This document shows, in pieces, positions 18,573 through 38,200 of a DNA stretch of 64,000 nt. The stretch's first letter is position 1. Each line of letters begins with the position of its first letter. The stretch covers positions 528,959 to 592,958 of the forward strand of contig CAWCSY010000006.1 in the NCBI GenBank assembly GCA_963798355.1. The letters are read 5' to 3'. A model generated the notes under the pieces. The model worked only from the letters and a program-made list of their open reading frames with translations, was not told the origin of the DNA and did no database searches. The stretch comes from an uncultured Microthrixaceae bacterium (GTDB taxonomy: Bacteria > Actinomycetota > Acidimicrobiia > Acidimicrobiales > Acidimicrobilacustridaceae). The translations under genes were made by a program, and so were the position numbers.

Positions 18573-18599
18573 CCGGCGCGGCGGTGATTCTGGGCGAAC

Positions 18600-18843: not shown

Positions 18844-20202
18844 ATGCCGACGTCTCGACGCACGTCCTGGCCTCGCGGCCTGATCATCATCGGTGTCGTG
18901 GTGGCCTTCCTCGCCGTCGCGTGCGGCAACGCCAACGACGACAAGGGAGGCTCGGCCTCGCCGACGTCGGCGGCGGGCTCGGGAGACTCCGGCGCCGCGG
19001 TTCCGGGTGTGACCGCCGACGAGATCCGGTTCTCGTCCATCGGCACGAACTCGAACAACCCGCTCGGCACCTGTGTGCTCGACTGCTTCGACAACGGCAT
19101 CAAGGCCTACTTCGACTATCGCAACGACGAAGGCGGGATCTACGGCAAGAAGCTGGTCTTGTCGAAGGAGCTCGACGACGAGCTGTCGAAGAACCAGGAG
19201 CGGGCGCTCGAGGTGGTCACCGCCAACGACACCTTTGCCAACTTCAACGCGACGCAGCTGGCCAGCGGCTGGGCCAACCTGGCCGAGGCGGGCATCCCGA
19301 CCTACACCTGGGCGATCAACCCGGCCCAGGCCACCGGTCATGACGAGATCTTCGGCTACGCGCCGGTCGTCTGCATCGATTGCACCGCGCGCTACGTCGC
19401 CGAGATCTCCAAGACCGCGGGGGCCAAGAAGATCGCGACCCTCGGCTACGGGGTCAGCGACAACTCGAAGCTCTGCGCCGAGGGCGCGGCGGAGTCGGCG
19501 ACCCAGTACGGAGACGACGTCGGTGGAGTCGAGGCTGTCTACACCCGGTCGGATCTGGACTTCGGACTGCCCAACGGCATCGCCCCCGAGGTCACCGCCA
19601 TGAAGGACGCTGGTGTGGATCTCGTCTTCGGATGCCTCGATCTGAACGGGATGAAGACGCTCGCTCAGGAGATGGAACGCCAGGGCATCGGCGACGTGAA
19701 GCTCGTCCATCCGAACACGTACGACCAGACCTTCGTGAAGGACAACGCGGATCTGTTCGAGGGCGACTACGTCCTGGTGGGGTTCCGTCCGTTCGAGGCG
19801 GAATCGGGTTCCAGCAACCTCGACGCCTTCAAGGAGTGGATGGGCAAGAGCGGGAGCCCCATCACCGAGCTGGCGATGGTGGGCTGGATCAATGCCGATC
19901 TGGCCTACCAGGGCATCAAGGCCGCGGGTGAGAACTTCGACCGCCAGTCCGTGATCGGCGCGACGAACGAGATGACCGATTACACCGCGGACGGGCTCAT
20001 CGCGCCTATCGACTGGTCCCGCCAGCACGTGGCACCCACGCAGGAAGACCTGGCGACCCACGGCCCCAAGTACGACTGCTATGCGCTGGTGCAGGTGAAG
20101 GACGGGGCCTTCCAGATGGCCACCGACGCCGCGAAGCCGTGGTCCTGCTGGTCTGGGGCGAACCGTGACTGGTCCGAGCCCACCTCGATGAACTTCCCGT
20201 GA
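18844..20202 (+). CDS. ABC transporter substrate-binding lipoprotein, branched-chain amino acid (HAAT/LivJ-like) family
   Basis: ATG 18844 with GGAGGA RBS. Lipobox in VVAFLAVACGNAN. Type-1 periplasmic binding fold. The upstream in-frame extension from 18631 was rejected. Confidence 0.85.
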   Translation: MPTSRRTSWPRGLIIIGVVVAFLAVACGNANDDKGGSASPTSAAGSGDSGAAVPGVTADEIRFSSIGTNSNNPLGTCVLDCFDNGIKAYFDYRNDEGGIYGKKLVLSKELDDELSKNQERALEVVTANDTFANFNATQLASGWANLAEAGIPTYTWAINPAQATGHDEIFGYAPVVCIDCTARYVAEISKTAGAKKIATLGYGVSDNSKLCAEGAAESATQYGDDVGGVEAVYTRSDLDFGLPNGIAPEVTAMKDAGVDLVFGCLDLNGMKTLAQEMERQGIGDVKLVHPNTYDQTFVKDNADLFEGDYVLVGFRPFEAESGSSNLDAFKEWMGKSGSPITELAMVGWINADLAYQGIKAAGENFDRQSVIGATNEMTDYTADGLIAPIDWSRQHVAPTQEDLATHGPKYDCYALVQVKDGAFQMATDAAKPWSCWSGANRDWSEPTSMNFP

Positions 20203-20218
20203 TCGGGGTCACGCACGG

Positions 20219-22306
20219 ATGATGTTCGCAGCATCGATTGGTACCGATCTGTTGCGGGGGGTGCTCCAGGGAGCGCCCCCCGGGGCGGTGTATGCGTTGA
20301 TCGCGGTGGGGTTCGTGCTGACGTACAAGACGTCGGGCGTGTTCAACATGGCGTTCGGGGCGCAGGCGTACGTGTCGGCGGCGATGTACTTCAAGGCGCG
20401 GACGGTGTGGGGTTGGGGGGCGTTGCCGTCGTTTCTGTTGGCGGTGGTGGTGTTGGCGCCGTTGTTGGGGTTGGGCTTGGAGTGGTTGATCTTTCGCCAT
20501 CTGCGCACTGCGTCAGCGGTATCGAAGCTGGTGGTGACGATCGGGTTGGCGGTGGCGATCCCGGCGTTGTTCGACATCCTGGCGAACTTCACGGCGATCG
20601 CGGGGAAGACGCCGGTGGGGATCGCTCCGGATGGGTCGAAGGTGTTCTACGACCCGTTCGGTGTGTACAAGTTCAGTCGTGACGAGCTCGTGACCATGGG
20701 CATCGCGGTGGTGGCGACGTTGGCTCTCGGCGCCCTGTTCAAGTTCACTGCGTTGGGGTTGCGGATGCGGGCGGTGGTGGAGTCGCCGAGGATGACGGAG
20801 TTGGATGGGATCCCGGCCGATCGGGTCTCCGCGTTTGCGTGGACGTTGTCGTCGTTCTTCGCCGGTCTGGCGGGGGTGTTGATCGCGCCGCGGTTCAACA
20901 CGTTGGCGGCGGACAACTTCTTCAACCTGGTGGTCGTGGCCATCGCCGCCGCGGCGATCGGAAGCCTCGTGAGCCTGCCCAAGGCGTTGGCCGGCGGTCT
21001 CGGTCTCGGCGTGTTCATCGCCCTGTTCAACACGTTCTTGCCACGCTGGTCGAACGACTACACCTGGTTGCGGCCGATCCAGGACAACCTCACGCCGGCG
21101 ATCCCGTTCCTCGTCCTGTTCGGGGTGTTGGTGTTCGTACCCAGCATTCGGCGGACGAGTGAGTCGCGGGATCCGTTGGCGGATGTGGATCCGCCGGCGC
21201 GGACGTTGGGGGCGGTGGTGCGGGATCGGCGTCGCACCCTCATCTCCGGTGCCGTCGGATTCGGGATCCTCGCCATCATCGGGTTGGTGGTGTTCGGTCG
21301 AGCGGATCAGCGGTGGTTGTTCCTGGTGACGCAGGCGGCGGTGTTGGCCATCGTGTTCTTGTCGATCACCGTCATCACCGGCCAGGCCGGGCAGATCTCG
21401 TTGTGTCAAGGGGCGTTCGCGGCGACCGGCGCGTTCACCGTCTACCAGTTGGTGCAGCGCTATGACGCGCCGGTCCTGCCCGCTGCGCTTCTGGGTGGGG
21501 TGATCGCGGCTGTCGTCGGGGCGGTGTTGTCGTTGCCGATCCGCCGGTTGGGTGGGGTGTGGACGGCGATCGCGACGTTGGCGTTCGCCTATTTCTTCGA
21601 TGCGGTGATCGTGAAGCTCCCCTTCGTCGGCGGGGGCGGCAAGTCGTTGCTGCAGGGCACCGTGGTACCCCGCCCGGTGATCGGGGCGTTGAGCTTCAGA
21701 TCTGACAAGGCGTTCCTTGCTCTCGTGCTGGTGGTGTTCACCCTGGTGGCATTGGCGGTGACCCAGATGCGCAACGGCACGTTGGGCCGCGTCCTGGTCG
21801 CGTTGCGGGGCAGTGAGGTGGGCGCCGCGTCGATAGGGATCTCACCGGGCCGGGCCCGGCTGGTCGCGTTCGCGATCTCTGGGTTCATCGCCGGTTTGGG
21901 TGGCGGCCTGTTGGCGATCCAGCAGGGCAACGTGAACTACGCCAACAACTTCTCCCCGTTCGCCGCGCTGTTCTGGGTGGTCATCGTCGTCTCTCTCAGT
22001 TCCCGCACGATCCAGGGGGCGGCGATGGCGGCTGCGTCGTTCGCGCTGTTCGACGCGGTGATCCTGAAGGGCACGTTCATCGGGTGGATCCTGCAGAGCC
22101 CGTCCCGCATTCCGGGGTTCCTACCGATCTCGTCGAAGTGGGTGTTCGTCCTGTTCGGCCTCGGTGCCATCCAATACGCCCGCCATCCCGAAGGCATCCT
22201 CGAGTACTCCAAACGTCGGAGCGCGGCGCGCGCCGCGGATCGTCACGCCGCCAGAACCGCCGCCGCCGCTGACGCGGTGGAGCCTGTTGCGGAGCCGGTG
22301 GCATGA
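20219..22306 (+). CDS. fused LivH-LivM type ABC permease
   Basis: 695 aa, highly hydrophobic. The N-terminal half is LivH-like (AVYALIAVGFVLTYKTSGVFNMAFG). The C-terminal half is LivM-like (LSITVITGQAGQISLCQGAFAATGAF). Confidence 0.85.
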   Translation: MMFAASIGTDLLRGVLQGAPPGAVYALIAVGFVLTYKTSGVFNMAFGAQAYVSAAMYFKARTVWGWGALPSFLLAVVVLAPLLGLGLEWLIFRHLRTASAVSKLVVTIGLAVAIPALFDILANFTAIAGKTPVGIAPDGSKVFYDPFGVYKFSRDELVTMGIAVVATLALGALFKFTALGLRMRAVVESPRMTELDGIPADRVSAFAWTLSSFFAGLAGVLIAPRFNTLAADNFFNLVVVAIAAAAIGSLVSLPKALAGGLGLGVFIALFNTFLPRWSNDYTWLRPIQDNLTPAIPFLVLFGVLVFVPSIRRTSESRDPLADVDPPARTLGAVVRDRRRTLISGAVGFGILAIIGLVVFGRADQRWLFLVTQAAVLAIVFLSITVITGQAGQISLCQGAFAATGAFTVYQLVQRYDAPVLPAALLGGVIAAVVGAVLSLPIRRLGGVWTAIATLAFAYFFDAVIVKLPFVGGGGKSLLQGTVVPRPVIGALSFRSDKAFLALVLVVFTLVALAVTQMRNGTLGRVLVALRGSEVGAASIGISPGRARLVAFAISGFIAGLGGGLLAIQQGNVNYANNFSPFAALFWVVIVVSLSSRTIQGAAMAAASFALFDAVILKGTFIGWILQSPSRIPGFLPISSKWVFVLFGLGAIQYARHPEGILEYSKRRSAARAADRHAARTAAAADAVEPVAEPVA

Positions 22307-23088
22307 GCCCGGTGTTGGAGGTGGAGGGGATGACCAAGCAGTTCGGGCGGATCGTGGCGTTGGAGGAAGCGTCGATCAGTGTCGACGCGGGGGAGCGGGT
22401 CGGGTTGATCGGTCCGAACGGGGCCGGCAAGACCACGTTCTTCAACTGCATGCTCGGTGTGTTGCGCACCGACCGCGGCCGGGTGCACCTCGACGGCGAG
22501 GACATCTCGGGCCTGGCGGTGCACCAACGGGCCCGCAAGGGCATCGGCCGCACCTTCCAACGCATCGAACTGTTCCCCGAATCGACGGTGCGTGATCACC
22601 TCTTCGTCGCCGAACGCGTCCACGGCCGCAAAGGCCGACTGTGGAAGGACCTCATCGGACTCGGTCGCCCCACGGCTGAAGAGCTCGCCCGCTGCGACGA
22701 CGTCCTCCAGCTCCTGCAGTTGAAGGACCTCGCCGATGAACCCATCGAACGGCTCAGTCTCGGCCAGTGCCGCCTCGTCGAAGTCGGCCGGGCACTCATG
22801 ACCGAACCCAAAGTCCTGCTGTTGGACGAACCGTCATCGGGGTTGGATCGGGCCGAGACCACCGCACTCGCCCAGACGTTGCGCGAAGTCCAGGATCGAC
22901 AGGGCTTCGCCATCCTGTTGGTGGAACACGATGTCGAGTTGGTGGCCAGCTTCACCACCCGGTCCTACGTGCTCGACTTCGGTCGCATGATCCTCGAAGG
23001 CCCCACCAACGACGTGTTGGCCTCGGCTGAGGTGCGCGCCGCCTACCTCGGCAACCTGGAACCCACCTCACCGGGACCCACCCCATGA
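22303..23088 (+). CDS. ABC transporter ATP-binding protein (LivG-like)
   Basis: ATGA overlap with the permease stop. Walker A GPNGAGKTT, signature LSLGQCRL, Walker B LLLDEPSSGLD. Confidence 0.9.
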   Translation: MSPVLEVEGMTKQFGRIVALEEASISVDAGERVGLIGPNGAGKTTFFNCMLGVLRTDRGRVHLDGEDISGLAVHQRARKGIGRTFQRIELFPESTVRDHLFVAERVHGRKGRLWKDLIGLGRPTAEELARCDDVLQLLQLKDLADEPIERLSLGQCRLVEVGRALMTEPKVLLLDEPSSGLDRAETTALAQTLREVQDRQGFAILLVEHDVELVASFTTRSYVLDFGRMILEGPTNDVLASAEVRAAYLGNLEPTSPGPTP

Positions 23089-23822
23089 CCGCGACACCCT
23101 CGACGACGGCCGGGGCGCCGGTGTTGGAGCTGGCCTCGGTGGCGGCCGCCTACGGGCCGTTCCGGGCCCTGTTCGACGTGTCGCTCACCGTCGCCGCCGG
23201 CGAAGCCGTCGCGCTCGTCGGGTCCAACGGGGCCGGGAAGACCACCGTCGCCCGCGTCGCCTCCGGACTCCTCGCACCAGGAGCCGGCACCATCCACATC
23301 GACGGACACGACCTCACCGGGGCCCGAACGTACAAATACGCCCGAGCCGGCGTCGCCCACGCCCCGGAAGGCCGCTCGGTGTTCGCCACCATGTCGGTCG
23401 AGGAGAACCTCACCCTGTCGTTCCGACGGGCGTTCGGCCGCAGAGGCGTCCGCGGCGCGCTCGACCGCGCCTACGGCTACTTCCCCGTCCTCGCCGAGCG
23501 ACGCACCCAAACCGCCGGCACCCTCTCCGGCGGCGAACAACGCATGCTCTCCCTCGCCCGGGTCATGGTCGAGGTCCCCAAGATCCTCATCGCCGACGAG
23601 CTCTCGCTGGGCCTCGCGCCCATCATCGTCGACCAGCTCTACCAGAGCCTGCAACGACTCCGCGACGAAGGCACCGCCCTGCTCATCGTCGAACAACAGG
23701 TCGTCCACGCCCTCGACCTCGCCGACCGCGTCATCCTCCTCGACCACGGCACCGTCTCCTGGCAAGGCACCAGCACGGACGCCACCGACGTCATCGCCCA
23801 AGCCTTCGAACCCATCAACTGA
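23085..23822 (+). CDS. ABC transporter ATP-binding protein (LivF-like)
   Basis: ATGA overlap. Walker A GSNGAGKTT, signature LSGGEQRML, Walker B LIADELSLGLAP. Confidence 0.9.
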   Translation: MTATPSTTAGAPVLELASVAAAYGPFRALFDVSLTVAAGEAVALVGSNGAGKTTVARVASGLLAPGAGTIHIDGHDLTGARTYKYARAGVAHAPEGRSVFATMSVEENLTLSFRRAFGRRGVRGALDRAYGYFPVLAERRTQTAGTLSGGEQRMLSLARVMVEVPKILIADELSLGLAPIIVDQLYQSLQRLRDEGTALLIVEQQVVHALDLADRVILLDHGTVSWQGTSTDATDVIAQAFEPIN

Positions 23823-23854
23823 CCCGACCCACGATCCCGTTCTCAGGAGCAGGA

Positions 23855-25105
23855 ATGACCGCATCGGCCGTCGAGTTCGACCCGTTCTCCGACGAGTACT
23901 TCAACGACCCGACCGAGCTCTACCGGCGCCTGCGCGACGAGGCGCCCGTCTTCCACAGCGAGCGCTACGGCTTCTACGCGCTGTCGCGCTTCGCCGACGT
24001 GGTGGCGGCGCATCGCGACTGGCCGGGGCTGTCGAGCAGCCACGGCGTCGATCTCTCGACGCTGTCGACCGACCCGGATCTGGTGCGCAGCTACCGCAGC
24101 ATGATCATGATGGACCCGCCGGAGCACGACCGGTTGCGGGAACTGGTCAGCCGGGTGTTCACCCCGAGAGCCGTCACCGCGCTCGAGCCGATGATCCGAG
24201 AGGTCATCCGTGAGGTCCTCGAGCCGTTGGACGGAGCCGACGACCTCGACGTCGTGGCCGACTTCTCGGCGCTGTTCCCGGTCGAGATCATCTCCCGGAT
24301 GCTGGGTGTGCCAGAGGGAGAGCGGCAGCAGATCCGCCACTGGCTCGACCTGAGCCTCCACCGCGAACCCGGTCAGATGGATCCGACCCCGGAGGGCGTG
24401 CAGGCCGGTCTCGAGATGGGGGTCTACTTCTACGAGCTCGCGGGGGAGAAGCGGAAGCACCCGGTCGACGACATGATCTCGCGGCTCACGCAGGTGTCGG
24501 TCGACCGTGGCGACGGCACCGAGACAGGGCTCGACGACGTCGAGATCGCCGGATTCGCGACGTTGCTCGGCGGGGCCGGGGCGGAGACCGTCACGAAGCT
24601 CGTCGGCAACGCCGTGGTGCTGTTCGCTCGCCATCCCGACCAGTGGACGAAGGTCCTCGACGACCGCGAGGTCATCCCTCGAGCAGTCGAGGAGATCCTC
24701 CGGTACCTCCCGCCCTCGCAGTACCAGGGCCGGTTCTCCGTCGAGGACCGCACGTACGACGGCGGCACGATCCCCGCCGGGTTCCCGGTGTTGCTCATCA
24801 CCGGCGCGGCCACCCGTGATCCCCGAGCCTTCGAGAATCCCGACGACTTCGACATCGAACGGGAGCCGAAGGTGGCCATCGGCCTGGGTCACGGCGTGCA
24901 CAGCTGCCTCGGCGCCGCCCTCGCCCGGATGGAGAGCCGCATCGCCATCGAAGAGCTCGCCGACCGCTGGTCGCGTTGGGAGGTCGACGACGCCGGTCTC
25001 CGGCGGGTGCACATGTCGAACGTGGCGGGCTACTCGAGCGTGCCGGTCACCGTCACCCCCCAGACCCCGACCCCCCGACAACCAGATCCAGGGAGCGAAC
25101 GATGA
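23855..25105 (+). CDS. cytochrome P450
   Basis: 416 aa. ExxR (EEILRY) and heme-thiolate loop GLGHGVHSCLGAALAR. Confidence 0.9.
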   Translation: MTASAVEFDPFSDEYFNDPTELYRRLRDEAPVFHSERYGFYALSRFADVVAAHRDWPGLSSSHGVDLSTLSTDPDLVRSYRSMIMMDPPEHDRLRELVSRVFTPRAVTALEPMIREVIREVLEPLDGADDLDVVADFSALFPVEIISRMLGVPEGERQQIRHWLDLSLHREPGQMDPTPEGVQAGLEMGVYFYELAGEKRKHPVDDMISRLTQVSVDRGDGTETGLDDVEIAGFATLLGGAGAETVTKLVGNAVVLFARHPDQWTKVLDDREVIPRAVEEILRYLPPSQYQGRFSVEDRTYDGGTIPAGFPVLLITGAATRDPRAFENPDDFDIEREPKVAIGLGHGVHSCLGAALARMESRIAIEELADRWSRWEVDDAGLRRVHMSNVAGYSSVPVTVTPQTPTPRQPDPGSER

Positions 25106-26319
25106 CCGACGTCATGCAAGGTGTCCGAGTGCTGGAGGTGGCCGAGCACACCTTCGTGCCGGCCGCGTCGGCGTTGCTGGCCGAGTGGGGCGCCGAGGTG
25201 ATCAAGATCGAGCACGTCGAGCGGGGTGACGCCATGCGCGGCCTCGCGTCGAGCGGCACGGTGTCCCTCGGCGGTGGCGTACACGTGCTCCTCGAGCACT
25301 CGAACCGAGGCAAGAAGTCGCTCGCGCTCGACCTGACGTCCGACGACGGCCTCGCGGTCCTCTACAAGATCGCCGAGACCTGCGACGTCTTCCTCACCAA
25401 CAAGCTGCCGAGCGTGCGGACCAAGCTCAGGATCGACGTCGATGAGATCCGGGCGCACAACCCGAACATCGTCTACGTCCGGGGCACCGGTCAGGGTGAG
25501 CACGGTCCTGACCGGGACCACGGTTCCTACGATGCCCTGGCGTACTGGAACCGAGCCGGGATCGCCTACGGCCTCAAGGATCCTGAGAGCCCGCGGGTGC
25601 CGGCGCCGCCCGCCCCCGCGTTCGGCGATTCCATCGGGGGCATGACCATCGCCGGCGGGATCATGGGCGCCCTGTTCCATCGGGCCCAGACCGGCGAGGC
25701 GACCACCGTCGACGTGTCGCTGCTCGGCGTGGGCATCTGGTCGATGGGCGCGGCGATGGCCCTGTCGCTGCAGATGCAGGTCCCGTGGGGCCCGCCACCC
25801 GGCGGCTTCCCGACCGGCAACCCGCTCGTCAGCAACTACCAGGCCAGCGACGGCGCCTTCGTGGCGCTCGTCTGCCTGCAACCAGGTAGGTACTGGGCCG
25901 AGCTCTGCGAGATCGTCGGTCGCCCCGACCTCGTCGACGACGAACGCTTCGTCGACGCCGACGCCATCATGGCCAACGCGGCCGCCGGGTCCGACGAGCT
26001 GGCCAAGGCCTTCGCGGAGCACTCCGCCGACGAATGGCGAGCGAAGCTCCAGCCGTTCTCGGGGCAGTGGACGATGGTCCAGAACACGCTCGAGGTCGCG
26101 ACTGATCCGCAGACCACGGCCAACGCGTACGTCCAGGACTACACGACCTCGGACGGTGTGGCGTTCCAGCTCGCGTCCCCGCCGATTCGGTTCGGCGACG
26201 AAGCCCCGACTGCGAAGCGCGCGCCCGAGTTCAACGAGCACGGCGACGAGATCCTCCAGAGCCTCGGCTTCGACTGGGATGCCATCGTCGACCTCAAGGT
26301 CCGCGGCGTGGTCGCCTGA
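25102..26319 (+). CDS. family III CoA-transferase (CaiB/BaiF type), intact
   Basis: ATG 25102 overlaps the P450 stop (ATGA). Contains GVRVLEVAEHTFVPAASALLAEWGAEVIKIE and NRGKKSLALDL. 405 aa. Confidence 0.9.
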   Translation: MTDVMQGVRVLEVAEHTFVPAASALLAEWGAEVIKIEHVERGDAMRGLASSGTVSLGGGVHVLLEHSNRGKKSLALDLTSDDGLAVLYKIAETCDVFLTNKLPSVRTKLRIDVDEIRAHNPNIVYVRGTGQGEHGPDRDHGSYDALAYWNRAGIAYGLKDPESPRVPAPPAPAFGDSIGGMTIAGGIMGALFHRAQTGEATTVDVSLLGVGIWSMGAAMALSLQMQVPWGPPPGGFPTGNPLVSNYQASDGAFVALVCLQPGRYWAELCEIVGRPDLVDDERFVDADAIMANAAAGSDELAKAFAEHSADEWRAKLQPFSGQWTMVQNTLEVATDPQTTANAYVQDYTTSDGVAFQLASPPIRFGDEAPTAKRAPEFNEHGDEILQSLGFDWDAIVDLKVRGVVA

Positions 26320-26486
26320 TGGCGTCCGCTCGGCGCGACACGAAGCGCGCCGTGAACAGCCACATCGAGCGGGCGCTCGTGGACGTGCTCGACTTCGCCA
26401 TCTGGGCCGAGTCGATCGCGTCGGCCAGCCCCGAGCGCGCGGCGATCGTCGCGGCGATGCAGGCAGGGGCCGGCGGTCGTGACTGA
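26319..26486 (+). CDS. small hypothetical protein (55 aa)
   Basis: ATG 26319 overlaps the CoA-transferase TGA by one nt (TGATG). Sequence MASARRDTKRAVNSHIERALVDVLDFAIWAESIASASPERAAIVAAMQAGAGGRD, with nearly all codons ending in G or C. It is below the 60 aa cutoff of the ORF track. Confidence 0.35.
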   Translation: MASARRDTKRAVNSHIERALVDVLDFAIWAESIASASPERAAIVAAMQAGAGGRD

Positions 26487-26521
26487 ACCGACACGGGTGG
26501 GCCGATGACCGGGCTGATGCG

Positions 26522-27355: not shown

Positions 27356-27393
27356 TGCTGCTCCCTTCCCGACCCTCCGGTCCGAGTCGCCTC

Positions 27394-27432: not shown

Positions 27433-27481
27433 CCGGGATGCGTGAGCTGACCCGTCGGCATCAGCCTGCAGCATCCGTGCC

Positions 27482-29592: not shown

Positions 29593-29608
29593 AGGTCTGG
29601 CGCCGGGC

Positions 29609-30283: not shown

Positions 30284-30364
30284 ACGCCCTCCTCGATCGA
30301 GAGTTGTACGGACTCTGGGGCGGCCTGGGGAGCCGGATCTCGGCTCCGCTCACGAGGGGCCGGG

Positions 30365-30400
30365 TCAAGTGTCGACATCGACATCGATGTGAGAGAATCT
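30365..30400 (+). promoter_or_regulatory. operator/promoter motif copy 3
   Basis: TCAAGTGTCGACATCGACATCGATGTGAGA GAATCT. Three tandem TCGAYR hexamers, 57 nt upstream of ATG 30457 and 82 nt from the TetR start. Confidence 0.55.
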
Positions 30401-30456
30401 ACCCCTTCGAGCACGACGGGCCGTCCGTGGGACGGGGTGGGGAGGCACACGCGCAG

Positions 30457-31263: not shown

Positions 31264-32455
31264 CACGTCGCTCACGGGGGTCCCGAGGGAGGCCGAGGCC
31301 GCGCTCGGCGATGAGGTTCCGCTGGATCTCGTCGGTCCCGCCGCCGATCCGCAGTCCCGGGGCGAAGAGGAACCGTTCGGCCCACACCTCGAAGCCGGCT
31401 GCCCCACCGGCGATCGACGACGCGCCGAGCAGCGCCATCGCCGAGTTGGCGGTCTGTCGGGCGTGCTCGGAGTACAGGAGCTTCACGACCGAACCTCCGG
31501 CCACGACGGGCTGATCGGTCTGGAGCCGGCCCACCAGCAGGTCGAGCAGGGTCTCACGGATGTGGGCGGCCGCCAGCTCCTGGCGGACGAGTGGATCGTC
31601 CGCCCGCCCGAGCTGGCGAGCGTGGTCGATCAGCATGGTGGCCCCGCGGGCGCTCGTGCCGCCCCCGATGGCCGAGCGTTCGCTGGTCAGGACCGTTCGG
31701 GCGACCGTCCACCCCTGACCGACGTTGCCGATGCGGGCGGTGTCGGGCACGCGCACATCGGTGATGAACACCTCGTTGAAGTGATACGACCCGGAGAGCT
31801 CGCGAATCGGGCGGACCTCGATGCCCGGGTCGTGCAGGTCGACCACGAAGCAGGTGAGCCCGGCGTGACCGGGTTCGTCCGGGTCGTTGCGCATCAGTGC
31901 GATGCCGAAATCGGCGCTGCCCGCGACGGAGGTCCACACCTTCTGTCCGGACAGCACCCAGCTTTCGCCATCGGGGGTGGCCCGCCCCTTCACGCCAGCG
32001 AGGTCGGACCCGGCGTCGGGCTCGGAGAACAGCTGGCACCAGACCTCCTCGGCGCGGAGGATCGGGGCGATGTACCGGTTGCGCTGCTCGTCGGTCCCGT
32101 GCTCGAGCAGGGTGGTGGTCACCATCTGCAACCCCACCGCCAGCGCCTTGGTCGACACCCCGTAGGGCGAGGCCTCGGCTGCGAACAGCTCCTCGGCCCA
32201 TCTCCCCCGACCCGCGCCGCCCCACTCCGAGGGGATCGAGAGCCCGGCCCACCCGCCTTCGTGCAGCTCCTGTTGCCAGGAGGCGACGCGGGCGATCACG
32301 GCGCGCTCGTGCTCGACGAAGCCCTCGAGCGTTGCCGCTCCGGCGAGGTGCGCCGTCGAGAAGTCCTCGGGCGATCCCTTCGCGGGGGCACGGTCGGCCA
32401 GCCAGTCCCGGGCGCTCTGGCGGAACGCCTCGACCTCTGCCGCGTCGGTGCTCAT
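31247..32455 (-). CDS. acyl-CoA dehydrogenase
   Basis: 402 aa. ATG 32455 overlaps the upstream stop (ATGA). Contains WCQLFSEPDAGSDLAG and GGGTDEIQRNLIAERGLGLP. Confidence 0.9.
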   Translation of the reverse strand: MSTDAAEVEAFRQSARDWLADRAPAKGSPEDFSTAHLAGAATLEGFVEHERAVIARVASWQQELHEGGWAGLSIPSEWGGAGRGRWAEELFAAEASPYGVSTKALAVGLQMVTTTLLEHGTDEQRNRYIAPILRAEEVWCQLFSEPDAGSDLAGVKGRATPDGESWVLSGQKVWTSVAGSADFGIALMRNDPDEPGHAGLTCFVVDLHDPGIEVRPIRELSGSYHFNEVFITDVRVPDTARIGNVGQGWTVARTVLTSERSAIGGGTSARGATMLIDHARQLGRADDPLVRQELAAAHIRETLLDLLVGRLQTDQPVVAGGSVVKLLYSEHARQTANSAMALLGASSIAGGAAGFEVWAERFLFAPGLRIGGGTDEIQRNLIAERGLGLPRDPRERRVSATR

Positions 32456-32886
32456 CGCGGCAGCCCGAGGACCCGTGCCGCATTGCCTCGGAGGAACTTC
32501 GGCCACACGTCGTCCTCGAAGCCGACGGCGGGCAGCTCGGTCATGATCCGCTCGAGCGAGAGGCCCATGGGGAAGTAGCCGCCGTAGACGAAGCGGTCGG
32601 GGTGCTGCTCGAGCGCGGCGTCCGCGGGGCCGCCGGTGGCGGCCGAGACCATCGCGATGTCGACCCCCCAACGGTCCATCTCCGCCAGGGTGTGGCCGAC
32701 CGGATCGTCGTCCGCCGCGAACCCCTTCTCGGGGACCGCCTTGAACATGTACTCCACCGGCATCTCGAACTCGTCCTGCGTCTGCGTGTCCCGGATCTGC
32801 GCGCGGATCTCGGCGTAGGCGCCACGCAGATCCGCGTGCGGGAACCCGATCATCGTGTCGATGATCCCGACATCGGACGGCATCAC
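32452..32886 (-). pseudogene. amidohydrolase-2 family gene with a probable large in-frame internal deletion (144 aa left)
   Basis: An N-terminal block (IIDTMIGFPHADL...EMDRWGVDIAMVS...HPDRFV) runs straight into a C-terminal block (YFPMGLSLERIMTELPAVGFEDDVWPKFLRGNAARVLGL). The central barrel that carries the metal ligands is missing. Confidence 0.55.
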
Positions 32887-34061
32887 GGAACCGCGACTCC
32901 GAGCAGCTCGAGCGCGTTGTCACGGGCTATCCGCTTCGTCGTCGCCTCGTCCGCCCACGACAGCGACTCGGTCACGAAGTCCACCGGTTCGACGACGCCT
33001 TCCGCGTGCGGCCAGTCGGATCCGAACAGCAGTCGGTCCGCGGGCACATGGTCAATGAGCGCGGCGATGTCGTCCTCCCAGAACGGAGTGACCCACACCC
33101 GCTCGGTGAAGACATCGGTCGGGTGCTGGGTGAAGTACCCGGGGTTCCGGTTGGCTGCGTCGCTGAGACGATGGAGGAGATCGGGGGTCCAGGAGGCTCC
33201 GTTCTCGACGCTGGCGAACTGGATCTGGTCGAAGCGCTCGAACAGCAGCTGGCAGACCGCGGCGGCGTAGAAGTCCGAGACGGCGCGGCCCTTCGAGATC
33301 ACGCCGCGCAGGGGGCTGCGGAACAGCGAGCTCTCCGCACCGGACTCCCACATGTTCACGACGGCGTCGTAGCCCTCGAGGCCGGCGTGGGTGGCGACCA
33401 CGACGCCGCTCTCGTTCACCAGGCCCCAGAACTCGTCGTAGTCGGGTTCGAACGGCGACCGGTGGCCTCCCGGCACGGGGACCGGGGCGTTGCGGATGTT
33501 GATCGCCACCGCACCCAGATCGAGCACCCTCCGCAGCTCGACGGCCGCGGCGTGCGGGTCGAGGAGCTGGATGTACGGAACCGCGAAGAGGCGGCTCTTG
33601 TAGTTGTAGCCCCAGTCATCCTCCAACCACCGGTTGAACGCCTCGAACACGGCCACCGTGGCGCCCTTGTCGTGCTTGATCGCGTCCTCGATCCCGACGC
33701 CGAGCGTGGGGAACAAGAGCGTGCCGCCGAGGCCCTGCTCGTCCATCACCGCCAGGCGGGCATCACGGTCGCGGTACTCCGGACGGATCGGCTCGAGCTC
33801 ACCGAACGCGTCCTTCAGCGCCTTCTGATCGGGGTTGCCCCGGTACCAGGAGTACAGCGCGCCGGGCCTGGAGACCGGGTCGAACGTCGGGTTCACGATG
33901 TAGCTGTTCAGCTGGCCGCCGACGAGGAGCCGCTCGCGTCCCTTCACCGTGACCCACTGCACGCCCCGGCTCCGCAGCTTCGGGTCGAGGTGCCGGGTGA
34001 ACGCATCCGTCGCCTCGTAGTAGTGGTTGTCGAAGTCGAAGAGGTTGAACCCGAGGGTCAT
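32883..34061 (-). CDS. amidohydrolase-2 family metal-dependent hydrolase
   Basis: 392 aa. Contains FDFDNHYYE and LLFGSDWPHAEG. 4-nt overlaps at both ends. Confidence 0.85.
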   Translation of the reverse strand: MTLGFNLFDFDNHYYEATDAFTRHLDPKLRSRGVQWVTVKGRERLLVGGQLNSYIVNPTFDPVSRPGALYSWYRGNPDQKALKDAFGELEPIRPEYRDRDARLAVMDEQGLGGTLLFPTLGVGIEDAIKHDKGATVAVFEAFNRWLEDDWGYNYKSRLFAVPYIQLLDPHAAAVELRRVLDLGAVAINIRNAPVPVPGGHRSPFEPDYDEFWGLVNESGVVVATHAGLEGYDAVVNMWESGAESSLFRSPLRGVISKGRAVSDFYAAAVCQLLFERFDQIQFASVENGASWTPDLLHRLSDAANRNPGYFTQHPTDVFTERVWVTPFWEDDIAALIDHVPADRLLFGSDWPHAEGVVEPVDFVTESLSWADEATTKRIARDNALELLGVAVP

Positions 34062-35362
34062 GGTGCCTGCACCGGGGGAGGGCCCGACGTTCCCCGTCCG
34101 TCGGTGACGAAGCGGCAGTCGAGCGAATGTATGCCGTGCACGAACGCGCCCGCGAGGAGGTCCGGCTCACCCACGTCGAACACGCTCACCGACTGGGCGA
34201 GCTCGCCGAACACGCACCGCAGCTGTGCTCGGGCCAGGTTGGCCCCGAGGCAGAAGTGCGGTCCGCCGCCACCGAACCCGACGTGGTCGTTCGGCTGGCG
34301 GGTTATGTCGAATCGCCACGGGTCGACGAACACGCGCTCGTCCCGGTTGCCCGACCCATAGAACATGACCACGTGGTCCCCGGCCGAGATGGCCTGGTCG
34401 CCGATGGACGTGTCGGTCGTGGCCGTGCGACGGAACGTCATCACCGGAGTGGCCCAGCGCACGATCTCGTCGACTGCGGTGGGCAGCCACCGCTCGGGCT
34501 CGCGGCACAGCAGGTCCCACTGATCGGGGTTCTCCGCGAAGGCCATGACGCCATGGGTGATCGAGCTCCGGGTGGTGTCGTTGCCGGCCACCGCGAGGAG
34601 GACGGTGAAGGCGCCGATCTCCTGATCGGTCAAGCGCTCGCCGTCGACCTCGGCCTGCACCAACGCGGTGAGCAGATCGTCGGAGGGGTGCTCGCGTCGT
34701 TCGGCCGCGAGCTCCGAACCCAGTACCGACAGCGTGATCCCTGCGGTCAGCACCGCGGTGAACGGGTCGTCGTGGTCGGCGGTGAACTTGGGATCCTGCG
34801 CGGTGACCATCAGGTTGGCGGCCTCCCGCAACTCGACCTGCCGGTCAAGTGGGACGCCGAGCATCTCCGAGATCGTCCAGAGCGGCAGTTGCATCGACAG
34901 GTCCGCGACCAGGTCGCAGGTTCCCTTCGCCACCGCGGCGCCCACGATCGTGCGGGCTTGCACGTGGATCTGGGCCTCGATGACCGCGACCTGCTTGGGG
35001 GTGAAGGCCCGGCTGACCAGGCGGCGCAGCTGCGTGTGGCGGGGGGCGTCGGTCATCAGGAACGACCCGAACGGCTCGTTGTACTCCGCAGGGATGTCGC
35101 TGAAGCCGACGCCCCTGCCGCTGCAGTACTGCTCGGGATGGCGGCTGACGTGCACGATGTCCGCGTGCGTGGTCGCGGCCCAGAACCCTGGTCCGGAGGT
35201 CTCGAGGCCGAGCTCGACCGGTCGGTGGAACGTCACCGACGGCCTGCTCCGGAGGACGGCGAAGGCGACGTCTCGCTCGCGCATCGTCGTGTTCCAGAAC
35301 GCTCTCGCGGAGATGTCGACGGGGTCGAAGGGTCGAGTGACTGCTTCGGTTCCACTGGGCAC
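34058..35362 (-). CDS. cytochrome P450, CYP125-like by heme-loop resemblance
   Basis: GTG start at 35362, 434 aa. Heme loop GFGGGGPHFCLGANLARAQL. The conserved N-terminus PFDPVDISARAFW requires this start. The rest of ORF 34058..36514 is out-of-frame overlap with the ligase gene. Confidence 0.85.
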   Translation of the reverse strand: MPSGTEAVTRPFDPVDISARAFWNTTMRERDVAFAVLRSRPSVTFHRPVELGLETSGPGFWAATTHADIVHVSRHPEQYCSGRGVGFSDIPAEYNEPFGSFLMTDAPRHTQLRRLVSRAFTPKQVAVIEAQIHVQARTIVGAAVAKGTCDLVADLSMQLPLWTISEMLGVPLDRQVELREAANLMVTAQDPKFTADHDDPFTAVLTAGITLSVLGSELAAERREHPSDDLLTALVQAEVDGERLTDQEIGAFTVLLAVAGNDTTRSSITHGVMAFAENPDQWDLLCREPERWLPTAVDEIVRWATPVMTFRRTATTDTSIGDQAISAGDHVVMFYGSGNRDERVFVDPWRFDITRQPNDHVGFGGGGPHFCLGANLARAQLRCVFGELAQSVSVFDVGEPDLLAGAFVHGIHSLDCRFVTDGRGTSGPPPVQAP

Positions 35363-35370
35363 GGTCGACC

Positions 35371-35405
35371 AGCCTAGTCTCAACGTCGATGTCAAGTTTG
35401 ATGTC
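35371..35405 (-). promoter_or_regulatory. operator/promoter motif copy 4 (internal promoter for the P450, probably leaderless)
   Basis: On the minus strand it reads GACATCAAACTTGACATCGACGTTGAGAC TAGGCT. The -10 box ends 8 nt before GTG 35362. Confidence 0.6.
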
Positions 35406-35409
35406 TGCG

Positions 35410-37023
35410 CTACTTGAGTAGGCGGCCCAGGGCTGCGGTGTGCTCTGGATCGAGCGCCACCAGCGGTCCCCCCTTCACGGACCGCCAGAACGTGTGGGGC
35501 GCGTTCCATGCCTCCCGGCGCAGCCGCGTCTTGTCGATCTTCATGCTCGCCAGCTTCGGCAGGTCGTCGCTCGTGCGGATGAACGCCGGGATCCACTTCG
35601 GGCCCAGGTCGATCTGCGCAGCCAGGAACCGGTCGAGGTCCTCGGGGTCGAAGGTGGAAGGGTCGGGGAGCTCGAGTGCGGCCATGACCCGATCCCCGAC
35701 CGGGTCGTCCGGCACGGCGTAGACCGCGACGGATCGGAGGCCCGGGTAGCGGGAGAGGATGGCCTCGACCGGTCCGGCGGAGAAGTTCTCCCCGTCGACG
35801 CGAAGCCACTCGTTGCTCCGTCCCGCGAAGTAGAACCAGCCGTCGGCATCGCGGTAGGCCAGGTCGCCGGACCAGTAGAAGCCTTCGCGGAACCGTTCGG
35901 TGGTGGCTTCCGCGTTCTTGTAGTAGCCCTCGAAGCCGGCGGCCGGAGTCGTGTTCACGATCTCGCCGGTTGCCGCCTCCACGTTCAGCAGCCGACCGTC
36001 CGGGCTGCGCTCGATGCGAGGACATTCGAGGGCGGTCGACGGGTCGAGCACGACGGTACCGGCATCGGCGAGGCCGAGCGCACCGGCCGGCATGGTCGAG
36101 TCGCGCCGGATGATGATCATCCCCTCGGTCGACCCGTAGCTGTCGCGGACCTCGCAGGAGAACCGGCCGGCGAAGGTGCGGATGTCCGCCTCGGAGGCCT
36201 CGTTGCCGACGGCCATCCGGAGCGGGTTGTCGCCGTCGTCGGCAGACGGGGGCACCGCGAGGATGTAGTTGAGGACCTTGCCGGTGTAGGTGAGCAGGGT
36301 GGCGTCCATCCGACGGATGTCGCCCATCGTCTTCGAGGCGGAGAAGCGGGATCGGGTCCCGAACGGGACCTGGGCGTTGAACGCCGCGGCCATCCCGGTG
36401 AACAGCGAGCTCGAGTGGAAGAACGGCAGCGGCGAGTAGACCGCGCCGCCATCGGCCAGTCCGGCGATGTTGGCCACGTGCGCTCCCGTCCGAGCGAACC
36501 GTCCCTGCGTGCAACGGACCGCCTTGGGGAAGTTCGTGGAGCCGGAGGTGAAGATGAGGAGGAACAGGTCCTCGTCATCGGCGGGCTCCCGGTCCCGATC
36601 GGCGTCGACGGCATCGAGCGCGGCGGTGTAGCGAGGGTCATCGGTGCGCACGAGGCGGCTGCGGTCGAGGCCGGTCGGCGAGGCATCGAGCAGGTCGCCG
36701 TAGGTGGCGGAGGTGACGACCAGCTGGCAGTCGCTGTGGGTGATCAACCGGGCCAGCTCGTCGCCCCGGTAGGTCGCGTTGATCCCGACCACCGCGGATC
36801 GGGTGAGCGCAGCCGCGCCGAGCCAGAAGACGTACTCGGGGGTGTTGTCGAGGAGCACGCCGATGTGCGGCGGCTGGTCCGGGTCGCGGACCCGGTCCCA
36901 CCAGGCGGCGCGTCGACGGATCTCGCCGGCGAGCTGGCGATAGGTGAAGGACTGGTCCTCGAAGTGCAGAGCCGGCTCGTCGCTGTCGGCGTTGCGGAGG
37001 AAGAGCTCGGACGCGGAGGTCAT
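35410..37023 (-). CDS. AMP-dependent acyl-CoA synthetase/ligase (FadD-like)
   Basis: 537 aa. Contains LIFTSGSTNFPKAV, YGSTEG, GDLAYRDADGWFYFAGR. Confidence 0.9.
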   Translation of the reverse strand: MTSASELFLRNADSDEPALHFEDQSFTYRQLAGEIRRRAAWWDRVRDPDQPPHIGVLLDNTPEYVFWLGAAALTRSAVVGINATYRGDELARLITHSDCQLVVTSATYGDLLDASPTGLDRSRLVRTDDPRYTAALDAVDADRDREPADDEDLFLLIFTSGSTNFPKAVRCTQGRFARTGAHVANIAGLADGGAVYSPLPFFHSSSLFTGMAAAFNAQVPFGTRSRFSASKTMGDIRRMDATLLTYTGKVLNYILAVPPSADDGDNPLRMAVGNEASEADIRTFAGRFSCEVRDSYGSTEGMIIIRRDSTMPAGALGLADAGTVVLDPSTALECPRIERSPDGRLLNVEAATGEIVNTTPAAGFEGYYKNAEATTERFREGFYWSGDLAYRDADGWFYFAGRSNEWLRVDGENFSAGPVEAILSRYPGLRSVAVYAVPDDPVGDRVMAALELPDPSTFDPEDLDRFLAAQIDLGPKWIPAFIRTSDDLPKLASMKIDKTRLRREAWNAPHTFWRSVKGGPLVALDPEHTAALGRLLK

Positions 37024-37173: not shown

Positions 37174-37203
37174 TAGATACTCTCAATATCGACGTCAACT
37201 TTG
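37174..37203 (-). promoter_or_regulatory. operator/promoter motif copy 5
   Basis: On the minus strand it reads CAAAGTTGACGTCGATATTGAGAG TATCTA. About 150 nt upstream of ligase ATG 37023. Confidence 0.6.
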
Positions 37204-37220
37204 TGTAGATGGTCGCGATT

Positions 37221-37251
37221 CATCGACTTCGACATCAAGTTTGAGTATGTT
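37221..37251 (+). promoter_or_regulatory. operator/promoter motif copy 6
   Basis: CATCGACTTCGACATCAAGTTTGAG TATGTT. About 70 nt upstream of ATG 37321. Confidence 0.55.
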
Positions 37252-37320
37252 CGCCACCGAACAGCGGCGTCCGACTCCACCTGCGTCGGCGCGTCCAGGA
37301 CAACCGGGGGACATGGCTGC

Positions 37321-38200
37321 ATGAACCAGATCACGGTCGCGGACGACCTCTTCACCTGGCCCAGTTCGAGCCCGCGACTGCTCGGATCACGCTGCACGCA
37401 CAGGCGAACTACAGCCTGCCGAGCTGGTACGGCGAGACCGGACTCCTCCTCACGCCGAAGTTCTTCGCCATGAAGATCCAGCGGTACATGCACGATTACG
37501 GGATCACCGCGCCCACGCTGGCGAAGGAGGCCGCGAAGGCGTACCGGAACGGCGCGCGCGCAACGAGAACGCCTTCCGTCGGTCGCCGATGTCGGAGGAG
37601 ACCATCCTCGAATCGAGGATGGTCAACGACCCGCCGACCCAGTACATGTTCTGCAGCCCAGACGAAGGGGCCGCCGCAGTCGTGCTGTGCCGGGCCGACA
37701 TCGCCAGTCGGTTCTCCGACGATCCGGTCTACCTCCGGGCCTCGGTGGTGCGGACCCGTCGCGTCGGATCGTTCGAGGTGCCCACCCCGTCCTTCCCTGC
37801 CGAACGCGCCCCTGCCTTGACGGTCGACGCATCGAAGGCCGCCTACGAGCAGGCCGGCATCGGTCCCGGCGAGGTCGACATCATCCAGCTGCAGGACACC
37901 GACGCGGGAGCCGAGATCATCCACATGGCCGAGAACGGGTTCTGCGCCGATGGCGACCAGGAGCAGCTGCTGGCCGACGGGGCCATCGAGCTCAATGGTC
38001 CGCTGCCCGTCAACACCGATGGCGGACTCATCGCCGACGGCGAGCCGATCGGCGCCTCGGGCCTGCGTCAGATCCATGAGCTCGTGCTGCAGCTGCGCGG
38101 TCGGGCCGGCGACCGCCAGGTCCCCGGCACCCCGCGGGTCGGGTACGCGCAGCTCTACGGCGCGCCCGGCACCGCAGGCGTCAGCATCATCCCGACCTGA
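37321..38200 (+). pseudogene. remnant: DUF35 (OB-fold/zinc-ribbon) N-terminus joined to the C-terminal two thirds of an SCP-x/Ltp-type thiolase, plus one frame change
   Basis: MNQITVADDLFTWPSSSPRLLGSRC is a DUF35-type start. Thiolase-like sequence follows with no catalytic-Cys N-domain: PKFFAMKIQRYMHDYGITAPTLAKEAAKAYRNGAR, then MSEETILESRMVNDPPTQYMFCSPDEGAAAVVL...NTDGGLIADGEPIGASGLRQIHELVLQLRG. A frame change lies near 37555. Confidence 0.65.

Follow-up and report, generated by a model that had tools for sequence, protein, structure and literature searches.

We analysed a stretch of 64,000 nucleotides (the window) from contig CAWCSY010000006.1 of assembly GCA_963798355.1, an uncultured Microthrixaceae bacterium of the Acidimicrobiia, and found within it a 19.6-kb gene group that is united by a common DNA control motif. 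The group encodes an ATP-binding cassette (ABC) importer of the LIV/HAAT type alongside two cytochromes P450, an acyl-coenzyme A (acyl-CoA) ligase, a CoA-transferase, three acyl-CoA dehydrogenases (ACADs) and a probable diiron oxygenase. We tentatively regard 18.6-38.2 kb of the window as a chromosomal regulon, a reading whose chances we rate slightly below even. Because of a G+C content of about 70%, raw lists of open reading frames (ORFs) for the window were crowded with shadow frames; we therefore used GC at third codon positions to call genes, and Pfam, NCBIfam and PDB searches to assign them, as follows.

18841-20202 (+): substrate-binding lipoprotein (SBP), Peripla_BP_6, LivJ-type fold (Pfam, 99 bits)
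20219-22306 (+): fused LivH+LivM-type permease, 695 amino acids (two BPD_transp_2 stretches)
22303-23088 (+): LivG-like ABC ATPase (best model LivG, below the NCBIfam equivalog cut-off)
23085-23822 (+): LivF-like ABC ATPase (best model LivF, below the NCBIfam equivalog cut-off)
23855-25105 (+): cytochrome P450, P450a (best PDB matches CYP125MRCA and CYP130, about 1e-66)
25099-26319 (+): family III CoA-transferase, overlapping the P450a stop codon (Pfam, 275 bits)
26522-27355 (-): SMP-30/gluconolactonase/LRE-like beta-propeller, putative lactonase or hydrolase (Pfam)
27482-28663 (+): ACADa, full-length alpha-like acyl-CoA dehydrogenase (best PDB matches ChsE4, 4x28_A, and Tcur3483)
28660-29592 (+): ACADb, beta-like acyl-CoA dehydrogenase of 310 amino acids, only the C-terminal domain detectable (best PDB matches Tcur3481 and 4x28_D, ChsE5)
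29609-30283 (-): TetR-family regulator (TetR_N, 44 bits, and TetR_C_24)
30457-31263 (+): TesB-like double hot-dog acyl-CoA thioesterase (4HBT_3 and 4HBT_3C)
31247-32455 (-): ACADc, third acyl-CoA dehydrogenase (best PDB matches Tcur3483 and ChsE4)
32452-32886 (-): Amidohydro_2 remnant, ORF of 144 amino acids (no Pfam hit; full-length homologues in relatives)
32883-34061 (-): putative amidohydrolase-related dinuclear (diiron) oxygenase (ARO) of the 4DZI clade (Amidohydro_2; D11-N-H13 and D349-W-P-H-A-E354)
34058-35341 (-): P450b, CYP124/CYP125/CYP268 clade (heme loop FGGGGPHFCLG; PDB ranking)
35410-37023 (-): acyl-CoA ligase, FadD17/FadD1/CasI clade (Pfam, NCBIfam)
37307-38200 (+): DUF35/thiolase remnant, a dead gene (six-frame reading; Thiolase_C_1, 102 bits on read-through)

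This inventory agrees with that of a first-pass annotation made from the sequence alone, with three corrections: the intact amidohydrolase is re-read as a probable ARO, the second one as a deleted remnant, and the SMP-30/gluconolactonase-like gene, which was absent from the earlier list, is added. Successive genes overlap or abut at 18841-26319 (+), 27482-29592 (+) and 37023-31247 (-). From these overlapping or abutting stop and start codons and from the motif sites given below, the locus divides into about seven transcription units, namely SBP to CoA-transferase, the lactonase-like gene, the ACAD pair, TetR, the thioesterase, the operon of ligase, P450b, ARO and Amidohydro_2 remnant with ACADc as its last gene, and the thiolase remnant. 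A scan for ferredoxin-like small ORFs found neither ferredoxin nor ferredoxin reductase in the cluster.

The shared operator-like motif

The motif is the 16-mer TTGACGTCGATGTTGA. At up to three mismatches the window holds 11 copies, against 0.53 expected and a maximum of 3 in shuffles, which is an enrichment of about 20-fold; seven of the 11 lie in the five promoter-bearing intergenic regions of the cluster (18.6-37.2 kb), and the grouping is therefore not due to chance. The 13-mer core, allowing at most one mismatch, occurs four times, always in promoter regions of the cluster, versus 0.3 times in simulations. The seven sites are:

18607-18622 (+): ATGACGTCGATGTTGC, upstream of the transporter operon, preceded by a TTGACA hexamer
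18701-18716 (+): GTGACGTCGATGGTGC, upstream of the SBP/transporter operon
27408-27423 (+): TCGACGTCGATGTTGA (1 mismatch), divergent lactonase-like/ACADa intergenic region
30372-30387 (-): TCGATGTCGATGTCGA, divergent TetR/thioesterase intergenic region
35380-35395 (-): TTGACATCGACGTTGA, between the ligase stop and the P450b start
37183-37198 (-): TTGACGTCGATATTGA, divergent ligase/thiolase-remnant region
37223-37238 (-): TTGATGTCGAAGTCGA, divergent ligase/thiolase-remnant region

With seven copies in its five promoter-bearing intergenic regions, the cluster is probably one regulon. Apart from a weak match with three mismatches at 5389, no comparable site lies ahead of the flanking genes on either side, and the motif thus delimits 18.6-38.2 kb, nearly the range of the first-pass annotation. 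The weak match belongs to a pair of identical three-mismatch copies in the left flank (TTGACGAGGATGTCGA; 5389-5404, -, and 10039-10054, +), the first in the 5128-6000 gap upstream of an esterase gene, the second within a gene for a short-chain dehydrogenase/reductase (SDR).

Each site consists of one to three tandem GTCGAY/ATCGAC hexamers flanked by TCAA- and -TTGA-like arms; when the intergenic regions were searched for inverted repeats, the motif failed to come out as a clean palindrome. Several copies open with TTGACA or TTGACG, and a TAnnnT-like hexamer comes about 17 nucleotides later, so the site may sit inside the promoter, over a -35-like TTGACA/G hexamer. The shorter pattern GTCGATGTYGA was dropped because it also matches Val-Asp codon runs within genes.

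The TetR-family protein encoded at 29609-30283 is probably the repressor that acts on the motif, and we infer its candidacy from the motif site in its own upstream region. It has the TetR_N helix-turn-helix domain, and the predicted operator occurs in the TetR/thioesterase region as well as in four other promoter regions. The first-pass annotation had ascribed to the cluster an operator of its own. A shared operator-like motif does exist, but it is common to homologous loci in other Acidimicrobiia and in Frankia. Among the related loci, labelled here by L numbers, orthologous sites are kept upstream of SBP in L002 and upstream of the ligase in L004. In L019 (9945), L021 (9957) and L029 (9957; Aquihabitans) a copy precedes the CoA-transferase homologue by about 50 bp, and the motif further accompanies homologous genes in L041 (889, 6420 and 15504), L046 (15845), L086 (442 and 8099) and the two Frankia loci L037 (3609) and L038 (11193). 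The genes behind it in these other Acidimicrobiia and Frankia are homologues of CoA-transferase, amidohydrolase, ACAD and enoyl-CoA hydratase, which suggests a conserved regulator with a wide regulon.

The cluster had also been described as an island. Its composition is native (GC 0.66-0.71 inside, 0.67-0.72 outside), a tRNA scan of the window found none, and no mobility gene or domain turned up when the called genes were scanned with Pfam, while direct repeats were not searched for. Catabolic-type genes run on past both ends of the cluster, from about 4.5 kb to about 45 kb, and its modules are rearranged in relatives. The cluster is not a horizontally acquired island.

Predicted importer, activating enzymes and oxygenases

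The importer has the parts of a LIV/HAAT-type ABC importer (TC 3.A.1.4), that is, a cluster-B Peripla_BP_6 binding protein, LivH and LivM permeases, and LivG and LivF ATPases, the last two encoded by genes whose stop and start codons overlap. The window contains no Mce system, and on both points the first-pass annotation was right. Cys28 of SBP is invariant in an alignment of 42 sequences, and an AGGAGG Shine-Dalgarno sequence directly precedes the ATG. A search of SBP against PDB sequences gave no homologue. Its AlphaFold2 model (pLDDT 85.5) resembles LivJ-type binding proteins in Foldseek, with TM-scores of 0.7-0.8 (normalised by target length) at 12-19% identity; these structural neighbours bind hydroxybenzoates, coumarate, leucine, urea and fatty acid and include aromatic-acid binders of Rhodopseudomonas palustris. 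The fold search settles the family of SBP, not its ligand.

Two enzymes could activate an imported acid. The ligase scored below the NCBIfam cut-offs of its best models (CasI, 500 versus 900 bits; FadD1, 469 versus 800; FadD17, 435 versus 850). For the CoA-transferase the best PDB matches are formyl-CoA transferase and Rv3272 (about 1e-38), and all NCBIfam equivalog models fell far under cut-off. Its reading as an alpha-methylacyl-CoA racemase (MCR) was rejected, as MCR matched at 1e-19 versus 1e-38 for formyl-CoA transferase and Rv3272. The protein is 90-91% identical to those of two uncultured Microthrixaceae genomes assembled from metagenomes, and 53-75% identical to those of many other Acidimicrobiia, Frankia, Binatia and Myxococcota.

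ACADa and ACADb are adjacent, with overlapping stop and start codons, and would form an alpha/beta pair that mirrors the steroid-type heteromeric enzymes ChsE4/ChsE5 and Tcur3483/Tcur3481. The similarity is modest: the pairing is predicted at the level of sequence, and the PDB E-values are only 4e-33 (alpha-like) and 8e-12 (beta-like). The earlier description of an alpha/beta-like ACAD pair fits the gene overlap and these best matches. With NCBIfam, ACADb reached 57 bits against IpdE2 (cut-off 450).

The two P450s differ in how well they can be placed. P450a had no close characterised relative in the PDB search. P450b, whose start is probably the GTG at 35341 (alternative ATG at 35284), is assigned to the CYP124/125/268 clade by its heme loop FGGGGPHFCLG and its PDB ranking, in keeping with the first-pass claim that one of the P450s is CYP125-like. 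Its best PDB match is CYP268A2 of Mycobacterium marinum (6BLD; 2e-122, aligned over residues 2-411 of 427, identity not calculated), ahead of CYP125MRCA, the reconstructed CYP125 ancestor (1e-114), of CYP124, a methyl-branched lipid omega-hydroxylase (1e-100), and of CYP125 (about 1e-90), so by this ranking P450b is closer to CYP268A2 than to CYP125. Membership in a P450 family needs more than 40% identity by the usual rules. CYP268A2 and CYP124, the nearest to P450b, are both hydroxylases of methyl-branched lipids. Orthologs of P450b are common in Acidimicrobiia (65-84% identity). In L085 (15037-21293) one of them lies 4 kb from genes resembling an extracellular contractile injection system (phage sheath, gp19-like tube, Pvc16_N, AAA ATPase).

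The gene at 32883-34061, the only intact Amidohydro_2 gene in the 18844-38200 range, is translationally coupled to P450b and probably encodes a diiron hydroxylase, a third oxygenase rather than a hydrolase. AROs are recognised by an N-terminal D-x-H in the first beta strand and a C-terminal D-x-P-H-x-D/E after about 200 or more residues, motifs that the characterised hydrolases and decarboxylases of PF04909 lack (PMC13154177). D11-N-H13 of the cluster protein aligns to DNH of 4DZI and DSH of PtmU3, DWPHAE (349-354) aligns to DWPHGE of 4DZI and DYPHLE of PtmU3, and the motif residues align to the metal ligands of PtmU3. With a hydrophilic Asn at gamma-1 and a non-aromatic Ala at gamma-4 (gamma-2 was not mapped), it fits the "diiron-dependent" row in Table 1 of PMC13154177. 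These motifs, alignments and gamma residues make a third oxygenase more likely than a hydrolase. The best PDB match by far is 4DZI (2e-90; about 55% identity, estimated from the alignment), a mycobacterial protein of solved structure (Q73XC0) that behaved as a diiron-type ARO and for which no reaction is known (PMC13154177); PtmU3 (2e-23) and DitZ (2e-10) follow. The latter two hydroxylate diterpenoids (PMC13154177), and PtmU3 accepts CoA-ligated substrates (PMC7782822). While the cluster ARO is like these enzymes in both motifs, in Asn gamma-1 and Ala gamma-4 and in its match to 4DZI, it differs in belonging to a catabolic-type operon with coupling to a P450, and no Rieske ferredoxin lies near, an absence usual in the high-potential class.

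The first-pass annotation had listed amidohydrolase-2 proteins in the plural. One intact Amidohydro_2 protein is present, but it carries the ARO motifs DxH and DxPHxE, and the second is a remnant. The 144-residue ORF at 32452-32886 has lost about 190 amino acids in an in-frame internal deletion between HPDRFV and YGGYFPMGL, from an original of roughly 300. Homologues in L017, L041 and L038 are full-length (roughly 300 residues), the copy in L041 scoring 84 bits against Amidohydro_2. The idea that the ORF encodes a true small subunit partnering the ARO was rejected, since relatives have a full-length Amidohydro_2 at this place and the copy in the window is the same protein minus its central 190 or so residues. 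Another metagenome-assembled genome (L047, 2-406) has a homologue with a different internal deletion, which may mean that this gene has decayed there independently or that the assembly is at fault.

Modules, decayed genes and flanks

Close relatives shuffle the modules of the locus, which is a mosaic. L002 (82-87% nucleotide identity) is colinear from a flanking Baeyer-Villiger monooxygenase (BVMO) gene through P450a and keeps the linkage of transporter and P450a. It lacks 2.2 kb (within 16605-18800) that in the window immediately precede the transporter promoter and encode a second thioesterase and a DUF427 protein. In L004 (80-88% nucleotide identity, given as 83-88% for this comparison) the P450a-CoA-transferase pair abuts the ligase: at 11223-11272, 9.1 kb of the window (26324-35447) are absent, comprising the lactonase-like gene, ACAD pair, TetR, thioesterase, ACADc, Amidohydro_2 remnant, ARO and P450b, and the transporter ortholog lies about 480 kb off on the same contig. 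The P450a-CoA-transferase pair is kept in L004, L007 and L008. L083 has P450b-ARO-ACADc and thioesterase-ligase contiguous at 81-87% protein identity (ACADc 82%; thioesterase, adjoining the ligase, 84%), with no transporter in 19 kb. L086 combines ligase, ACADc, full-length amidohydrolase, ARO, thioesterase and P450b with a paralogous LIV-type transporter and motif copies (64-72% identity for P450b, ARO, ligase and amidohydrolase, 54% for ACADc, 41% for the thioesterase), and L017 holds TetR, transporter, CoA-transferase, ARO, amidohydrolase and ACADc together. The stable units are small modules, the best conserved being a core of ligase, P450b, ARO, ACADc and thioesterase; its linkage to a LIV-type importer is recurrent and not fixed.

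This mosaic build raises the possibility that the locus is a patchwork, in which recombination in a paralogue-rich genome has juxtaposed independent small modules (the importer, P450a-CoA-transferase, the ACAD pair, and the ligase-P450b-ARO-ACAD-thioesterase core) that serve different substrates and share one conserved lipid-catabolism regulator. The shuffling or separation of modules in relatives of 80-90% identity, the presence/absence differences of 9.1 and 2.2 kb and at least four decayed genes in 35 kb would all fit such a history, as would the motif ahead of homologues in many Acidimicrobiia and Frankia and the very large size of the SBP and CoA-transferase families. We nevertheless consider it rather doubtful: the motif sites are concentrated here, with seven in 19 kb against 14 matches (up to two mismatches) in 1.38 Mb of related loci, L017 and L086 again join a LIV-type transporter with ARO/ACAD/ligase genes, and L002 keeps transporter and P450a together.

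The conserved core contains no chain-shortening enzymes, and PtmU3 is itself a biosynthetic enzyme, which together could point to biosynthetic tailoring instead of catabolism, with a CoA-tethered scaffold hydroxylated, desaturated and released by the thioesterase as in platensimycin-type pathways. Such a role is highly improbable for a cluster that is linked to an importer and whose neighbours are typical catabolic genes; no terpene synthase, polyketide synthase or nonribosomal peptide synthetase was found among the called genes of the window.

Decay is evident at several points, with at least four broken genes in 35 kb: a CoA-transferase fragment, the BVMO, the Amidohydro_2 remnant and the DUF35/thiolase remnant. 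The lesions are probably real and not assembly noise, because most neighbouring genes are intact. In the last of them, which the first-pass annotation had correctly recognised as a remnant, a deletion has joined a DUF35 start (MNQITVADDLFTWPSSSPRLLGSRCT, about 26 codons) to mid-thiolase sequence of the SCP-x/Ltp type, with loss of the N-terminal half of that thiolase; further on, the reading frame shifts within a (GC)n run near 37560-37590. The CoA-transferase fragment (4492-5127, +), 14 kb to the left of the cluster, matches just the C-terminal 140 or so positions of the CoA_transf_3 profile.

Compared with L002 and with L004, the BVMO gene has one inserted base near 12868 and another near 13138, and its C-terminal 347 amino acids first showed up as a separate ORF of no assigned function. 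The gene begins a flank module of BVMO, SDR and Amidohydro_2 (12159-16609, +) that relatives keep linked with the cluster, that is colinear in L002 and L004 and that contains no copy of the motif. The flanking features are:

7073-7855: enoyl-CoA hydratase, left flank
12159-14020 (+): BVMO-type flavin monooxygenase with two +1 frameshifts (GxGxxG motif, fingerprint FGGHSFHTARW)
14023-15702 (+): SDR of 559 amino acids, flank module
15779-16609 (+): HxH-type Amidohydro_2 (hydrolase type), outside the cluster (Pfam, motif check)
16711-17847: second TesB-like thioesterase
17844-18572: DUF427 gene

Other genes of the left flank encode an esterase, SnoaL, a luciferase-like monooxygenase, an SDR and a pyrroloquinoline quinone (PQQ)-type dehydrogenase. 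On the right there are genes for a DapB/diaminopentanoate-dehydrogenase-like protein, an SDR, a nitroreductase and further hydrolases, as well as a second TetR (41071-42024, -; MftR-type C-terminal domain), which has S15-family and Abhydrolase_10 hydrolases beside it, and a second SMP-30/gluconolactonase-like paralogue (47672-48619, +). The stretch at 49148-63986 is unrelated to the cluster; it holds a PAS histidine kinase with a LuxR-type response regulator, a MEDS/HATPase protein, a PAS-GAF-SpoIIE phosphatase, a multicopper oxidase with a cupredoxin domain (53027-54478) and a run of phospholipid genes (phospholipase D, BrkB-like, diacylglycerol kinase, two PAP2).

Relation to known systems and proposed pathway

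Judged by its genes, the cluster appears to work like the TetR-controlled lipid, steroid or terpenoid catabolic clusters of actinobacteria, and membership tests exclude the steroid, pim and dit systems. The earlier comparison with steroid degradation holds only at the level of gene families: with the mycobacterial cholesterol side-chain genes (CYP125/CYP142, FadD17/FadD19, ChsE4-ChsE5, Ltp2-ChsH2 DUF35; KstR) the cluster shares a CYP124/125-clade P450, a ligase whose best NCBIfam models are CasI, FadD1 and FadD17, a predicted alpha/beta ACAD pair with best matches to ChsE4/ChsE5 and Tcur3483/Tcur3481, a former pair of DUF35 and SCP-x-type thiolase, and a TetR-family regulator. A sterol- or cholate-derived acid might thus be imported by a LIV-type transporter that replaces Mce4, and have its side chain degraded. 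ABC import of cholate metabolites is described for CamABCD (PMC8399759). We regard steroid or bile-acid side-chain degradation as improbable, however. Every steroid equivalog threshold tested was missed by a wide margin, P450b is nearer to CYP268A2 than to CYP125, and the thiolase/DUF35 gene is dead. The marks of a steroid cluster of the KstR regulon type, namely side-chain equivalogs, a MaoC hydratase (ChsH1-H2) with Ltp2 or a working thiolase, and ring genes, are missing from the 64-kb window, and its called genes gave no Pfam hits for MaoC, Ltp2-type aldolase, KshA/Rieske, KstD or Hsa. Further differences from the cholesterol genes are the LIV-type importer in the absence of Mce4, the ARO, the family III CoA-transferase and another operator motif, which is presumably unlike KstR-type operators.

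By joining a LIV/HAAT importer to a ligase and to a heteromeric ACAD, for a carboxylate other than an amino acid, the cluster also recalls the pim operon of R. palustris and LIV-type transporters of aromatic or fatty acids. Straight-chain fatty or dicarboxylic acids would then be taken up, omega-hydroxylated by a P450 to dicarboxylates and oxidised by a heteromeric PimCD-like ACAD, which would suit a Microthrix relative, as these bacteria specialise in lipids. PimC (large subunit) is the best NCBIfam model for ACADa and ACADc and PimD the second-best for ACADb, and one structural neighbour of SBP (4n03) is annotated as the binding protein of a fatty-acid ABC transporter. The scores remain far under the cut-offs, though (PimC, 155-159 versus 624 bits; PimD, 52 versus 653 bits), PimC/PimD equivalogs together with PimA, PimB, PimE and PimF, which would define the operon, were not found, and the cluster differs in having P450s and an ARO and in lacking a working thiolase (PimB), a hydratase, a dehydrogenase and any PimE/PimF equivalents. 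Three oxygenases, one of them similar to diterpenoid hydroxylases, would be unneeded for straight chains, and we assign this explanation a small probability.

The dit clusters for abietane diterpenoid acids in Pseudomonas, Burkholderia and Rhodococcus contain P450s, the ARO hydroxylase DitZ, a CoA ligase, SCP-x-type thiolase/DUF35-like genes and a TetR-type regulator. Set against this composition, the cluster is alike, at the level of gene families, in P450s, ARO, CoA ligase, TetR and, as a remnant, thiolase/DUF35, but its ARO matches DitZ at just 2e-10, and the window has no ring-hydroxylating dioxygenase. What distinguishes the cluster from all these systems is its LIV-type importer, a 4DZI-clade ARO coupled to a CYP124/125-clade P450, a class-conserved motif and a mosaic, partly decayed build. 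Taken as a whole, the cluster is of an ordinary catabolic kind and has in part decayed here. No characterised ortholog with an assigned substrate and regulator was found in the literature, nor any paper that joins Acidimicrobiia with these gene families, and among the public sequencing runs found, all of them DNA metagenomes, none contains the window (best, 17% of sampled words).

We propose that the cluster serves the import and CoA-tethered oxidation of a hydrophobic acid under the shared motif, which we hold tentatively and as not quite an even bet. The lipoprotein-anchored importer would bring in a hydrophobic carboxylic acid, most likely a methyl-branched, isoprenoid or terpenoid-like one, and the FadD17/CasI-clade ligase, or alternatively the family III CoA-transferase, would convert it to the CoA thioester. 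Three oxygenases, P450b, P450a and the 4DZI-clade diiron ARO, could then act on the CoA-tethered molecule; P450b would probably hydroxylate a terminal or methyl-branched carbon, and for the ARO the hydroxylation of CoA-linked diterpenoids by PtmU3 offers a precedent. Desaturation by the ChsE4/ChsE5-like ACAD pair and by the third ACAD would follow, before the TesB-like thioesterase frees the product or rescues CoA. We infer this order of reactions from the predicted functions. Later steps would come from elsewhere, for example from the enoyl-CoA hydratase at 7073-7855, as would the redox partners of the P450s.

The cluster alone cannot complete beta-oxidation, because the DUF35/thiolase gene is dead and the motif-delimited unit contains no enoyl-CoA hydratase, MaoC or 3-hydroxyacyl-CoA dehydrogenase; the shortening of a side chain, which the first-pass annotation had envisaged, is therefore not encoded by it. 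That the substrate cannot be read from the sequence, as it had also stated, agrees with our finding that no equivalog threshold was reached. The lean towards a methyl-branched or terpenoid-like substrate is a weak one, drawn by analogy from the CYP268/124 clade of P450b, from the diterpenoids on which the characterised relatives of the ARO act, and from genes of the flanks and related loci (BVMO, luciferase-like monooxygenase, lactonase or esterase, SnoaL).

Several observations weigh against the proposed import and oxidation of such an acid by one regulon. Because close relatives such as L004 separate the modules, these can work apart; the family-wide occurrence of the motif may reflect a broad lipid regulon rather than one pathway; and the two remnants inside the unit may mean that part of it is no longer under selection. 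A strict sigma-70 promoter scan called no promoter here. Every enzyme missed its NCBIfam equivalog cut-offs, which leaves specificity unassigned, and the structural neighbours nearest to the SBP model, binders of small aromatic acids, amino acids and a fatty acid at 12-19% identity, lend nothing to a bulky terpenoid acid.

A more specific proposal, which we offer as speculative and on balance unlikely, is that the core of ligase, P450, ARO, ACAD and thioesterase under the TTGACGTCGATGTTGA operator, near LIV-type importers, forms an uncharacterised pathway that acts on a branched or terpenoid lipid tethered to CoA and hydroxylates it twice: a heme enzyme would perform one hydroxylation and a non-heme diiron enzyme the other.

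Soil, water and sponges harbour abundant Acidimicrobiia, which are rarely cultured and whose genomes are full of unassigned paralogues of P450s, ACADs, CoA-transferases, "amidohydrolases" and LIV-type transporters. The re-reading of one such "amidohydrolase" as a probable diiron oxygenase gives a handle on this gene content, the shared operator motif can be used to delimit regulons across Acidimicrobiia, and the conserved five-gene core is a unit suited to expression and assay. Should the substrate prove to be a branched or terpenoid acid, the cluster would reveal a way in which these bacteria exploit isoprenoids from plants or lipids. If the core indeed carried out two hydroxylations in one pathway, this would provide the first physiological role for the orphan 4DZI-clade AROs, a clade present in mycobacteria too, and a new lipid regulon in an abundant, scarcely cultured lineage of soils and sponges.

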